From assembly GCA_012517825.1 (NCBI GenBank), contig JAAYUG010000111.1, forward strand, positions 4,948-68,947: 64,000 nt of DNA. The letters are read 5' to 3'. How positions within the stretch are numbered: position 1 is the stretch's first letter; each line of letters starts with the position of its first letter. Position numbers and translations under genes: made by a program. Shown here one piece after another: positions 2,612 to 5,716 of this stretch. The notes below the pieces were generated by a model that was not told the DNA's origin, did no database searches, and saw only the letters and a program-made list of their open reading frames with translations. The DNA comes from Bacteroidales bacterium. GTDB lineage: Bacteria; Bacteroidota; Bacteroidia; Bacteroidales; JAAYUG01.

Positions 2612-4651
2612 TCAATACCCTTTTTTGGTGAAAAGCACAACCATGGTTTCTTCGGGATGAATTTTCACCCTGTACTTGTTCACTCTGCCATTTCCACTAG
2701 CAAAAATCATACCAGGAAGATATTCCCGGTTCCATACGATAAGCGGAATTTCCCGGGTTTTTGTGGATTTATTTACGATGATGCTGAGATACTTTTCGCC
2801 GCACTTCGCTGTTTTCATCAGTATGTTTTTTTGCGGGGAAGCAAACCTCACCGGGAAGGACGTTATGTTTTCCTTAACTTCCATTTGAAGCCAGGCAATC
2901 AGTGGTCCATAATCTTCCTGGATGCGGCTTCCGAGGCCGAGCAAAGAGGGGATCCACACTACTTCTCCCTGACCGAACCGGTTTCTGATACCGGCAGGTT
3001 CATTCCGGAAAGTGCAAATGACCTGGCCGGTACCGGGAGCGATGATTCCGCGCCAGAGGTGAGCCGGGAGGGTGTTATTTCCTATCCTTATTTCGAACAG
3101 GTTCTCAGTGAATTTAAATTCGCTGATGTTTCCTCCGAAAAGCCGTTCAAACGGGAACCCTGTTTTCATGGTATTATGGAGGTTTTCGTCGAAATAAGCC
3201 GTCAGCCCTTCAACGATGAGTTTACCTCCGTGGCTTACAAAATGTTCCAGAAGGGTTGCATAGCGTGAAGGGATGGCGATCTGATGGGCCAGAATGATGA
3301 CGGTTCCGGCATAGTTGTTCCGGGAAAAATCAAATTCTTCAAATGCGTTTATGCTGGCATTGATTCCAAGTTCACTTAGCGCTTCAAAGTAACCAAGGAT
3401 GGATTTCATCACCCCACCCGGGTTGCGTGCCTCGTAGTTTTGTGCCGAGCCGCCAGCCATTTTCTTTTCAGCCCAGAGGGACTCGCGGACGTATAAAAGG
3501 TGAATACCTGATTCAGTCTCCTGCAGACCGGTAAAAAGGTCGGGCCGTGATTGCAGGGTTTCAGCAACCTTTGCAATGGCCTGCATACGGTCGGATGGCC
3601 GGTTTTGAAAGTTCAGCAGGGCCCATTCTCCTGCTTCTATGCCGGAACTTCGCGGATTCAGAGACCAGAAAATTCCTCCCCTGGCTTCCGAGGCCAGAAG
3701 AATCCAGAGCCACTGGGTGATTTCTTCGGGTGAGGGACACATGGGGGCAAAACCGCTATACGTATTATTCCCTCCCTGGAGTTCAGTCATAAACCATGGC
3801 AGGTGACCTGCTCCGGAACGGATGATTTCGCTGTTGGCCGACATGGCAAGGGCATACTGCTGCCTGGTAAAGTACCCGAAATGCCATGAAGCATGGGCTG
3901 AACCTCCCAGATGAGAAAGGAAATTTCTCCACGAAGGGAAGTCGTATTCGGCACAGTTCTGAAAAATTGCATGATTGTTCACATGCAACTCATGTACTGT
4001 GTCGTATTTTTGTATTTCATCGGCAATCCATTGCAGGTACCAGGTGTTGAGATCGCGAAGGAAGGCCTGATCGGTCAGGTCAAGCAGTATCGGGTATCCT
4101 TTTTCGGTAAATTCTCTGAGCGGATGATTCTGCAACCATTCTTTATAGCGTTTGCGGGTAAATTCGTTTTTCGGTATTTCACCACCTGTTCCGGGTTCAT
4201 TGATCAGCACCCAGCCTCTTAAAGCGGGAAACCGGCTGTAATGGGTAACCAGTTTTTCAATGTAAGCTGCAACCGACCGAAGGTGCTCTTCATCGCGGGG
4301 AAATTTGAATCCTCCGATGTCAGTTTTTTCCGTTGCCGGAAACAGGGTGGCAAAGACCTGAATGCCGCAACGTTCTGCTGCATGGAAAGCCTCATCAAAC
4401 AAAGAGAAATCCCATACCGAATCACCTTTGTGCATGTACGATTCGAACATGCGGATACGGCATACCGTCATGTGGTTGTCTTTTATAGCCCGGAACCAGG
4501 AATCAATTTCACCGGGAGTCTGACCGGGTTCAATAAATACCTGCGCCCCTAAAAAAGGGAGTTGTCTTTCAGTATTCTGTGCAGATAACGACCTGGAGAG
4601 GATCATACCAACACCGATTAATAAACAGGTAATAAGGACAGGTTTCTGCAT
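2612..4651 (-). CDS. GH42-like glycoside hydrolase (beta-galactosidase family) with signal peptide
   Basis: 679 aa. It has a TIM-barrel type N-terminal half with WVLINEPG (acid/base-like NEP motif) and PWFMTELQGG (nucleophile-like), followed by a trimerisation-like middle domain. The N-terminus (MQKPVLITCLLIGVGMILSRSLSAQ) looks like a signal peptide. Confidence 0.65.
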   Translation of the reverse strand: MQKPVLITCLLIGVGMILSRSLSAQNTERQLPFLGAQVFIEPGQTPGEIDSWFRAIKDNHMTVCRIRMFESYMHKGDSVWDFSLFDEAFHAAERCGIQVFATLFPATEKTDIGGFKFPRDEEHLRSVAAYIEKLVTHYSRFPALRGWVLINEPGTGGEIPKNEFTRKRYKEWLQNHPLREFTEKGYPILLDLTDQAFLRDLNTWYLQWIADEIQKYDTVHELHVNNHAIFQNCAEYDFPSWRNFLSHLGGSAHASWHFGYFTRQQYALAMSANSEIIRSGAGHLPWFMTELQGGNNTYSGFAPMCPSPEEITQWLWILLASEARGGIFWSLNPRSSGIEAGEWALLNFQNRPSDRMQAIAKVAETLQSRPDLFTGLQETESGIHLLYVRESLWAEKKMAGGSAQNYEARNPGGVMKSILGYFEALSELGINASINAFEEFDFSRNNYAGTVIILAHQIAIPSRYATLLEHFVSHGGKLIVEGLTAYFDENLHNTMKTGFPFERLFGGNISEFKFTENLFEIRIGNNTLPAHLWRGIIAPGTGQVICTFRNEPAGIRNRFGQGEVVWIPSLLGLGSRIQEDYGPLIAWLQMEVKENITSFPVRFASPQKNILMKTAKCGEKYLSIIVNKSTKTREIPLIVWNREYLPGMIFASGNGRVNKYRVKIHPEETMVVLFTKKGY

Positions 4652-4768: not shown

Positions 4769-4943
4769 CTGAGTAAAAAATCGCCTGAAGTGCGATTAAA
4801 CACATAGGAAACACATAGGACACATAGAAGCACATAGGACGCATAGAAATCACATAGGACACATAGGAAACACATAGGAGACATAGGGTGTGCCGTTGCC
4901 TCTATGTGTTCTATGTTAACCTATGTACCTATGTGTTAAAAAA
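4769..4943. repeat. Composite repeat hairpin, copy A: 9 direct (C)ACATAG units, loop, 4 inverted CTATGT(G) units
   Basis: ACATAG/GCATAG starts at 4802, 4813, 4822, 4832, 4841, 4852, 4861, 4872 and 4881. The loop contains TGTGCCGTTGCC. CTATGT starts at 4902, 4911, 4921 and 4929. The element ends in GTTAAAAAA. Confidence 0.9.
4775..4798 (-). terminator. Weak hairpin plus T6 on the minus strand
   Basis: Minus strand reads AATCGCACTTCAGGCGATTTTTT: a 5-6 bp stem, a 7-nt loop and a T-run. It lies downstream (minus sense) of the repeat elements and upstream of the GH42-like gene. Confidence 0.3.
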
Positions 4944-4950
4944 GAGGGTA

Positions 4951-5081
4951 GCTGAGTAAAACACATAGTACACATAGAAACACATAGAGCACATAGGACG
5001 CATAGGAAGCACATAGGACACATAGGGTGTGCCGTTGCCTCTATGTGTTCTATGTCAATCTATGTGTCTATGTGTTAAAAA
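4951..5081. repeat. Composite repeat hairpin, copy B: 7 direct units, same loop, 4 inverted units
   Basis: ACATAG/GCATAG starts at 4963, 4972, 4982, 4991, 5000, 5011 and 5020. CTATGT starts at 5041, 5050, 5060 and 5068. The 36-nt core ACATAGGGTGTGCCGTTGCCTCTATGTGTTCTATGT is identical to copy A. Confidence 0.9.
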
Positions 5082-5164
5082 CCCGAAGATCAATAACAGT
5101 ACGCAATGCTTTTTTGACAGTGGTTTTTTTCAGGCAGTCGTTAAAAATGATGCGTAGTTCAGGA

Positions 5165-5716
5165 TTATTTAAGCAGAGAGAGGAGGGTTTGCCGCAGCAA
5201 TTCTCCGCGCAGACCCCTGGCTACAATAATTCCGTTTCCGTCGAGGAGGAAGTTCATGGGAATGCCATCGACCTGATAAAGAGCGGCAGCCTCAGAATTC
5301 CAGAATTTGAGGTCACTTACATGGTAAGGCCAGTTCAGGTTATCTTCTTTTATGCCCCTGAGCCAGGCATCACGCGAGCGGTCGAGGGATACGCTGTACA
5401 CAGTAAAACCCTGTCCTTTGGTAAAGGATTTGTCTTTGAATTCGTTATACACTTTCACCAGATTTGGGTTTTCTGCTCGGCAGGGCGGGCACCACGAAGC
5501 CCAGAAATCAATTAGCACCATTTTTCCGCGGAGGGAAGAAAGGGCAATTTCTTTTCCGTCAGGAGATGGAAGCACTATTTCCGGAGCTTGATTACCGGGT
5601 TCAAGTCCGATTACTACTCCGGCCGGAGAAGAACTTCCGGACTGTTTGTTACCCGATGATCGGTTACATGATATTATAAGAGCAGAAAAGGCAAGGATAA
5701 GGGCTATCTGTTTCAT
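5165..5716 (-). CDS. TlpA/AhpC-like thiol:disulfide oxidoreductase lipoprotein
   Basis: From the internal ATG at 5716: MKQIALILAFSALIISCNRSS (lipobox-like), then FWASWCPPCRAENP (thioredoxin-fold CxxC). The longer ORF reaching 5908 overlaps murA and was not used. Confidence 0.8.
   Translation of the reverse strand: MKQIALILAFSALIISCNRSSGNKQSGSSSPAGVVIGLEPGNQAPEIVLPSPDGKEIALSSLRGKMVLIDFWASWCPPCRAENPNLVKVYNEFKDKSFTKGQGFTVYSVSLDRSRDAWLRGIKEDNLNWPYHVSDLKFWNSEAAALYQVDGIPMNFLLDGNGIIVARGLRGELLRQTLLSLLK

Follow-up and report, generated by a model that had tools for sequence, protein, structure and literature searches.

Tandem CACATAG hairpins in a Bacteroidales genome as probable gene-less copies of a palindromic element that carries a GxxExxY nuclease gene

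We analyzed a stretch of 64,000 nucleotides from a Bacteroidales bacterium (the window), in which positions 4769-5081 hold two tandem hairpin elements, A and then B, built of short CACATAG/CTATGTG units. These hairpins are probably gene-less copies, similar to miniature inverted-repeat transposable elements (MITEs) or repetitive extragenic palindromes (REPs), of a Bacteroidota-wide palindromic element, the full form of which carries a GxxExxY nuclease gene. Elements of this family lie between genes, are linked to the nuclease gene, change their repeat units in concert and occur in gene-less and gene-bearing states at the same sites, and the two in the window have recently lengthened one arm each. 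The full-length form would have the gene, which encodes a GxxExxY protein of ~135 aa (a minimal PD-(D/E)XK nuclease), either in the loop of the hairpin or between two complete hairpins.

An earlier note, made from the sequence alone, had placed the two elements at these coordinates. Its description is borne out by the sequence read directly, by repeat finding, in which Tandem Repeats Finder and a repeat finder both recovered the arrays and the inverted arms, and by folding. Folding of both strands, one of the checks that it proposed, gave structures far better than those of shuffled sequences (z from -6.5 to -8.3): for the 4769-5081 region, -57.4 kcal/mol for the + strand as DNA (z -6.5), -118.8 for the + strand as RNA (z -8.0) and -115.9 for the - strand as RNA (z -8.3). 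The interrupted hairpin can indeed pair in several registers, and the region is non-coding. The 36-nt core that the note had reported as identical in A and B (4881-4916 and 5020-5055) is so, is found nowhere else in the window and had 0 matches in shuffles; likewise, all 10 copies of CACATAGG in the 64 kb fall within 4769-5081, against 1.2 expected. The arrays are not CRISPR arrays, which have repeats of 25-40 nt and unique spacers of similar length, as against units of 7 nt and spacers of 1-4 nt here. Rfam 15 gave no gathering-level matches in the window, in agreement with the earlier note, which recognized no non-coding RNA family with this unit, and permissive thresholds returned only generic microRNA-hairpin noise, both in the window and at eight typical family loci. 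A scan for short-range inverted repeats found no second unit-array hairpin in the 64-kb window.

The decisive check, likewise one that the note had proposed, was the search of other genomes for the unit, which revealed a dispersed family. When one genome per species was scanned with the pattern CACATAG-N1-5-CACATAG-N5-35-CTATGTG, at least 120 genome loci matched, almost all of them from Bacteroidota and Ignavibacteriaceae (Ignavibacteria). The matches listed include Saprospiraceae, Lewinellaceae, Chitinophagaceae, Prolixibacteraceae, Flavobacteriales, Cyclobacteriaceae, Cytophagales, Dysgonomonadaceae and Ignavibacteriaceae, and the true matches among them have a common plan, in which a T-rich run and an A(C/A)C foot are followed by two to four CACATAG units, a loop and a mirror-image arm. 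Among the same matches, the unit period has its mode at 8-9 nt with a tail to 10-13 nt, the loops of gene-less copies are variable and have no conserved sequence (median 17 nt, range 0-39 nt), and the commonest unit patterns are 3+3, 2+2, 2+3 and 3+2, compared with 9+4 and 7+4 in the window. The window pair agrees with the family in its arms, feet and placement: its arms hold at least two (C)ACATAG units, inverted between the arms round a short variable loop; a T-rich run and then A(C/A)C lie outside the outermost units on both sides (TTAAAC-ACATAG...CTATGT-GTTAAAAAA in A and AAAAC-ACATAG...CTATGT-GTTAAAAA in B); and the pair is intergenic beside a gene 3' end, 84 nt past the stop of a TlpA-like gene. 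Long asymmetric arrays such as those of the window are rare but recurrent (10+4 in L092, 7+2 in L118 and 9+6 in L203), and whole elements are repeated in tandem at L084, L160, L111, L101 and L071.

Some matches call for separate comment. A well-formed CACATAG hairpin lies in a metagenome-assembled genome labeled Thermoanaerobaculia (Acidobacteriota; L058:5591-5639), which reflects either horizontal spread or a binning error. A match in Blautia (L108) was rejected as chance; it falls in coding-like sequence. In viral contigs, a scan for direct arrays returned mostly unrelated microsatellites and DnaA-box-like iterons, with L008 alone a true family member, and the exact 36-nt core had no match there. 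Arrays such as TTATCCACATAG/TTATACACATAG in viral contigs L010, L031 and L035 are iterons of this kind (TTATCCACA), which fit the CACATAG pattern because of overlap and are unrelated to the hairpin family.

Clustering the open reading frames (ORFs) of the hairpin loci listed to find recurrent neighbors brought out a protein of ~135 aa, the gene for which has a median distance of 24 nt to the hairpins. It matches PF13366 PDDEXK_3 with an E value of 1e-37 and TIGR04256 "GxxExxY protein" (NCBIfam) with 5e-38, and the D...ExK motif is conserved. Nine of the 120 hairpin-selected loci listed held the gene, and at six of those nine complete CACATAG hairpins bracket it on both sides. In a reverse test, 80 metagenome loci were picked by protein similarity alone, which gave 73 genes with both flanks evaluable. 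The density of the 6-mers ACATAG/CTATGT is 10.8 per kb up to 200 nt from the gene and 0.49 per kb (the chance level) more than 400 nt away, and units are present at 68 of the 73. Direct units are found only upstream and inverted units only downstream of 27 of the 73 genes, so that the gene occupies the loop of an element of ~0.5 kb; in such loop-type elements the start codon lies 3-30 nt past the last direct unit and the stop ~10 nt before the first inverted unit. Complete hairpins stand on both sides of 15 genes and on one side of 18, and the nuclease is the sole gene between the arms. The earlier note had called 4769-5081 a stretch that genes, promoters and terminators do not explain; this holds inside the window, where no gene accounts for it, but elsewhere the family is tied to GxxExxY/PDDEXK_3 genes.

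Other clades of the protein are associated with the same architecture built from other units, namely CACAATAG, CATATAAG, CACAAAAG, CATACAAG, CACATAAG, CACTAAG, CATTAAG and CATAAAAG. Any one element uses a single kind for its six to eight units, and elements with the same unit type group together on the protein tree (0 of 2000 in a label permutation). That the units of both arms all change together points to a co-evolving factor that recognizes the unit, and the units are putative binding sites of the encoded nuclease. As to how the type of a distal hairpin agrees with that of the proximal gene, the data outside the CACATAG class are few.

The GxxExxY family is very large, comprising 25,817 clusters at 50% identity with E values of at most 1e-3 and 8,915 with at most 1e-10, and its members are named only "GxxExxY protein" in source records. 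A survey of the PD-(D/E)XK superfamily gives the function of PDDEXK_3 as unknown (Steczkiewicz et al. 2012; PMC3424549), and other papers in the searched literature that name GxxExxY or PF13366 do so only in passing. A sequence search of the PDB found no relative. An AlphaFold2 model with a predicted local distance difference test score (pLDDT) of 97.5 has a predicted alpha-alpha-beta-beta-beta-alpha-beta core; an earlier model, from a shallow alignment (pLDDT 57), was discarded. The solved folds nearest to the model, all distant, are those of Cas4 SSO0001 (template modeling score 0.50), lambda exonuclease, LHK-Exo and tRNA-splicing endonuclease, and searches of PADLOC and PHROGs gave at most a weak similarity to the Cas4 core. 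Proteins of ~270-295 aa with two tandem GxxExxY domains are common among the family representatives (P0243, P0244, P0248, P0249 and others), and one locus (L214) has two separate GxxExxY genes within ~1.1 kb.

Comparison of two intergenic sites in four syntenic Prolixibacteraceae loci captured the element in several states. In L069 site 1 is empty and site 2 has a hairpin of a different unit (GATTAACG); in L105 site 1 has a gene-less 3+3 hairpin and site 2 a gene-bearing element; L199 has the reverse, a gene-bearing element at site 1 and a gene-less 3+3 hairpin at site 2; and L230 has a gene-bearing element at site 1 and nothing at site 2. The GxxExxY genes of these related loci are thus in L105, L199 and L230. 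Given that the same sites differ in state, the gene-less and gene-bearing forms are allelic and the turnover of the family is quick.

Allelic forms also suit another order of events. The hairpins would come first, as places for landing or homing or as independent replicators like REPINs (REP doublets forming hairpins), and the GxxExxY gene would be a selfish insert that cuts hairpins still without a gene, after which repair copies it into the loop. The two hairpins of the window would in that case be vacant targets and the order of the forms would be reversed, with the nuclease still recognizing the units. That 27 of the 73 genes lie exactly in the loop fits this account, as does the seemingly greater abundance of gene-less copies, with the gene at only nine of the 120 hairpin-selected loci listed. 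We nevertheless judge it rather unlikely. The loops of gene-less copies are conserved in neither sequence nor length, so any cut site would have to be set from the arms; instead of lying in a loop, many genes have a complete hairpin on either side; and the spread of gene-less hairpins to new sites is left unaccounted for. Homing endonuclease genes, free-standing or in introns, resemble the present system as small selfish nuclease genes in a defined context of which unoccupied alleles exist, and I-Ssp6803I is a homing enzyme of the PD-(D/E)XK type. They differ in that the context of the CACATAG family gene is a multi-copy palindrome rather than a host gene or intron, and in that recognition here is apparently of a repeated short unit.

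The recent history of the window pair can be read from a metagenome contig (L172) that carries the closest homologue of the neighboring GH42-like gene (95% identity) and is 93% identical to the window over 4.4 kb. It has the same tandem pair, in which both hairpins are symmetric (4+4) with loops that differ from those of the window, and the four units that correspond to the expanded arm of B are partly degenerate. The window and L172 share arm-specific variants, namely GGTTAACATAG in element A and GATTGACATAG in element B, which makes the relationship one of A to A and B to B; the duplication that gave rise to A and B therefore predates the split between the window and L172. Comparison of the two sequences indicates that since that split one arm of each window element grew, from 4 to 9 units in A and from 4 to 7 in B. 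With L172 symmetric and the family at two to four units per arm, slippage accounts for the asymmetry of the window elements. In the window, element A has the same loop and inner units as element B (4881-4916 and 5020-5055), whereas in L172 (405-640) the two differ from each other, which suggests gene conversion between the tandem copies. Hence the 36-nt core and the 9 and 7 units against 4, all of which the earlier note had described correctly, are local and recent features and not traits of the family. Nor is the CTGAGTAAAA leader, which the note took for part of the plan shared by A and B, a trait of the family: it is a locally duplicated flank, retained in L172 as TTTTACTCAG/TTTTATTCAG on the other strand and absent from the family consensus.

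The same comparison bears on whether the window hairpins are a plain microsatellite generated by slippage and limited to this locus, an outcome that the earlier note had named as one that would refute novelty. Unit numbers of 9 and 7 in the window against 4 and 4 in L172, together with block duplications visible in L092, are what such a process leaves behind. However, the same plan, unit and foot recur at at least 120 unrelated loci and are tied to one protein family, which refutes slippage as a complete explanation; it covers the extra units only, and as an account of the element itself it is very improbable.

A more distant relative lacks the pair. This locus, at 71% identity (L175), has the same gene order of DUF4290, MurA-like, TlpA-like and GH42 genes, with a TlpA-like ortholog of 190 aa, and its 208-nt spacer between the TlpA-like and GH42 genes is without units. 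At two loci with 82%-identical orthologs (L173 and L174) there are no units within 218 nt of the start. Presence of the pair in L172 and its absence in L175 mean that the element was gained or lost whole. Two independent contigs with an 85%-identical GH42 ortholog (L256:1-115 and L257:1-115) both stop 115 nt upstream of the start codon, near where the element starts in the window, and these ends are probably assembly breaks at the repeat.

The placement of the family is strongly biased. Among the elements from the matches listed, 2 of 140 lie within ORFs, and a gene 3' end adjoins 100 (91%) of the 110 that have genes on both sides, often with the element only 3-40 nt past the stop; the flanking genes of these 110 are arranged in tandem in 76 cases, convergently in 24 and divergently in 10. 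That most copies sit just past stops and avoid divergent promoter regions would suit an RNA-level function for the host, as a terminator, insulator, 3'-end stabilizer, RNase III stem or protein sponge, with the link to GxxExxY secondary. The very stable predicted fold of the minus strand, on which both flanking genes lie, the terminator-like hairpin and T-run after element A on that strand, and the way in which arms enclose a whole ORF, like rRNA processing stems and 23S rRNA intervening sequences, argue in the same direction. Other properties of the family do not fit such a function. The element is strand-symmetric, reading alike on both strands and folding equally well on both; the arm mismatches of gene-bearing elements, of which 68 are G.U-compatible on the mRNA strand and 102 on the antisense strand, show no sense excess; and the feet, T-rich at the 5' side and A-rich at the 3' side, provide no terminator tail. 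Nor is there a match in Rfam. The spacers between units are not kept complementary, whereas the units themselves are conserved across the phylum, the opposite of what structured RNAs display and therefore the signature of a sequence recognized by protein rather than of an RNA selected for structure. We regard a host function in RNA as an improbable explanation of the family.

At the window locus itself, RNA roles such as RNase III insulation or 3'-end protection are possibilities, and a local influence on the transcript of the TlpA-like gene would agree with the after-stop placement and with the minus-strand hairpin at 4779-4797. That small hairpin separates the foot of element A from the duplicated CTGAGTAAAA flank and has no counterpart in element B; conservation in L172 is poor, which makes a function for it uncertain. 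We considered and rejected an intrinsic terminator, which the AT-rich unit arms and A-rich 3' flank, with no GC-rich stem and U-tract, do not resemble; only the 4779-4797 hairpin fits. The 23S rRNA intervening sequences of Leptospira and Coxiella, in which a long stem carries a small ORF in its loop, are alike in that long inverted repeats, which form the stem in the transcript, surround the ORF, and in being suspected selfish elements. Unlike them, the CACATAG elements are intergenic, encode another protein family and gave no signal of RNA-stem selection in the G.U test.

Among described systems, REPtrons, in which REPs, bacterial interspersed mosaic elements (BIMEs) or REPINs accompany a REP-associated tyrosine transposase (RAYT; TnpA_REP, an HUH Y1 enzyme), come closest in appearance. 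Both consist of dispersed short extragenic palindromes that often follow gene ends and often form tandem clusters, both have one small nuclease-type gene flanked by the same palindromes, and in both the repeat and the protein clade co-vary. REPs and BIMEs are defined by having one imperfect stem with a 5' GT[AG]G tetranucleotide at its foot (PMC6006769). In contrast, the CACATAG family has no GT[AG]G and its foot is A(C/A)C-ACATAG; its arms are arrays of 7-8-nt units rather than a single GC-rich stem, often with the gene in the loop, and its protein is a PD-(D/E)XK (GxxExxY/PDDEXK_3) and not an HUH enzyme. We asked whether the hairpins might still be classical REPs or BIMEs moved by a RAYT, or else, in the manner of DnaA boxes, an array bound by a DNA-binding protein of the host. 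Their size, palindromy, extragenic siting, tandem clusters and repeat-flanked gene are REPtron-like, Bacteroidetes RAYTs of subclass 2.6 are reported with "atypical" REPs (PMC6006769), and CCACA resembles the 3' half of the DnaA box. Yet besides the missing GT[AG]G foot, the subclass 2.6 REPs (GCTAGCGCGAGCG...) are unrelated and the supplement of PMC6006769 has no ACATAG; the recurrent neighbor is PDDEXK_3, with no Y1_Tnp among recurrent neighbors at the loci listed; and agreement of the units with TTATCCACA is limited to 5-6 of 9 positions, while true DnaA-box arrays in phage contigs look different. Membership of either kind is extremely unlikely.

A MITE and its parent insertion sequence (IS) offer a second parallel, since there too the non-coding form shares its inverted arms with the gene-bearing form and presence varies between related genomes. 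The CACATAG family differs in that its gene is no recognized transposase, its autonomous form is only ~0.5 kb, its arms consist of internal repeats and vary in length through slippage, and pairs 72-81% identical showed no target-site duplication. The short tandemly repeated repetitive (STRR) sequences of cyanobacteria, organisms that are also rich in GxxExxY genes, are tandem 7-nt intergenic units as well, of unknown function; they form simple direct arrays, and we know of no inverted-arm plan or linked gene in them, which sets them apart from the present family. These heptamer repeats are mentioned in PMC4748335 and PMC2670836. The elements described here are nuclease-associated miniature palindromes, closest in their working to REPtrons and to MITE/IS pairs, without the GT[AG]G foot and Y1 transposase of the former or the recognized transposase of the latter. 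No description of a CACATAG/CCACATAG element, or of its pairing with GxxExxY, was found in the searched literature; sources beyond it may hold one.

If the window hairpins are gene-less copies of a nuclease-bearing element, the encoded nuclease would copy or move the element by acting on its arms, whether these are duplex DNA or hairpins that are extruded or single-stranded, and gene-less copies would be mobilized or converted in trans. The modeled Cas4/lambda-exonuclease-like fold, taken with a hairpin substrate, suggests action at the hairpin followed by repair-mediated copying, which would be homing-like rather than cut-and-paste. The window pair would be an orphan passenger in the spacer between the TlpA-like and GH42-like genes and might serve there, at most, as an RNA or DNA hairpin barrier. 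A number of points weigh against this interpretation. No GxxExxY gene is present in the 64-kb window, so the gene link of the window copy rests on family membership, and the units in the window are spaced more widely (9-11 nt) than is usual in the family, where the mode is 8-9 nt. Co-variation of unit and protein is also expected if a gene is simply inherited together with its flanks. The empty and filled pairs are too diverged (72-81% identical) to define a target-site duplication or a clean boundary of insertion, and copy number per genome rests on rough density estimates of one site per 27-95 kb. Finally, PD-(D/E)XK nucleases hydrolyze DNA, and we know of no strand transfer by them and of no precedent for transposition by a GxxExxY protein alone.

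Beyond the window, we tentatively entertain a broader proposal, somewhat short of an even chance in our estimation, that GxxExxY genes and unit-array arms make up an unrecognized class of prokaryotic mobile or selfish element, in which the nuclease would recognize arrays of a 7-8-nt unit and propagate both itself and the gene-less hairpins. Hairpin or cruciform cleavage would be followed by repair or copying, with no DDE, HUH or recombinase transposase involved.

Hairpins of further units were encountered along the way. In L069:3540-3660 five direct copies of GATTAACG are followed by inverted CGTTAATC, with no linked gene identified. Unit-array palindromes also occur in L164:7095-7190 (units ACACCGAT/ATCGGTGT), L075:4780-4900 (AAGGAATA-like units) and L176:3880-4025 (GAGCTGCGA-like units), all three of which surfaced only as sub-threshold Rfam microRNA-hairpin matches; they suggest a wider superfamily of unit-array hairpins in Bacteroidota.

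The features of the window locus are collected in Table 1. The hairpin pair occupies a 513-nt spacer between two minus-strand genes, TlpA-like and GH42-like, and exact-protein look-ups returned no record for either window protein. A 162-aa ORF with a GTG start (5027-5515, + strand) begins within element B and runs antisense across the TlpA-like gene; it is almost certainly spurious.

Table 1. Features of the two hairpin elements and the flanking genes (window coordinates)
Feature	Position	Strand	Description
Element A	4769-4943		Leader CTGAGTAAAA, extra hairpin, 9 direct units, loop, 4 inverted units, TTAAAAAA
CTGAGTAAAA flank, copy 1	4769-4778	none	Same as 4952-4961; duplicated along with the element
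Small 6-bp hairpin AATCGC...GCGATT and T-run	4779-4797	minus	Terminator-like, consensus match only
Element A, expanded arm	4798-4887		Foot TTAAAC and 9 direct (C)ACATAG units, spacing 9-11 nt
Element A, direct unit starts	4801, 4812, 4821, 4831, 4840, 4851, 4860, 4871, 4880		CGCATAG at 4840, GACATAG at 4880
Element A, loop GTGTGCCGTTGCC	4888-4900		Center of the 36-nt core 4881-4916
Element A, short arm	4901-4943		4 inverted CTATGT(G) units and foot GTTAAAAAA
Element A, inverted unit starts	4902, 4911, 4921, 4929		
TTAAAAAA end of element A	up to 4943		
Element B	4952-5081		Leader as in A, 7 direct units, loop, 4 inverted units, TTAAAAA to 5081
CTGAGTAAAA flank, copy 2	4952-4961		Last bases double as the foot of element B
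Element B, expanded arm	4959-5025		Foot AAAC and 7 direct (C)ACATAG units
Element B, direct unit starts	4962, 4971, 4981, 4990, 4999, 5010, 5019		CGCATAG at 4999
Element B, loop	5026-5040		Identical to the loop of element A
Element B, short arm	5041-5081		4 inverted CTATGT(G) units and foot GTTAAAAA
Element B, inverted unit starts	5041, 5050, 5060, 5068		
AhpC/TSA-thioredoxin-fold (TlpA-like) lipoprotein gene	5165-5716	minus	Stop 84 nt from element B; predicted start MKQIAL...
GH42-like beta-galactosidase gene	2612-4651	minus	Start codon 118 nt from element A

Some consequences of these hairpins are practical, in that they break assemblies, L256 and L257 both ending where an element would start, and gene-less copies that follow stops may affect the 3'-end processing of neighboring genes. 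If the proposed role of the nuclease holds, the very large GxxExxY family (25,817 clusters) would gain a testable role and substrate, and Bacteroidota would have a system like that of REPs and RAYTs built on a different nuclease fold, widening the range of enzymes that sustain miniature palindromes. The units that co-vary with protein clades would then form a natural specificity series for the study and engineering of DNA binding by a minimal nuclease. Were the GxxExxY elements truly a new class, a large class of intergenic palindromes in Bacteroidota would be explained, possibly including the GATTAACG and ACACCGAT hairpins.

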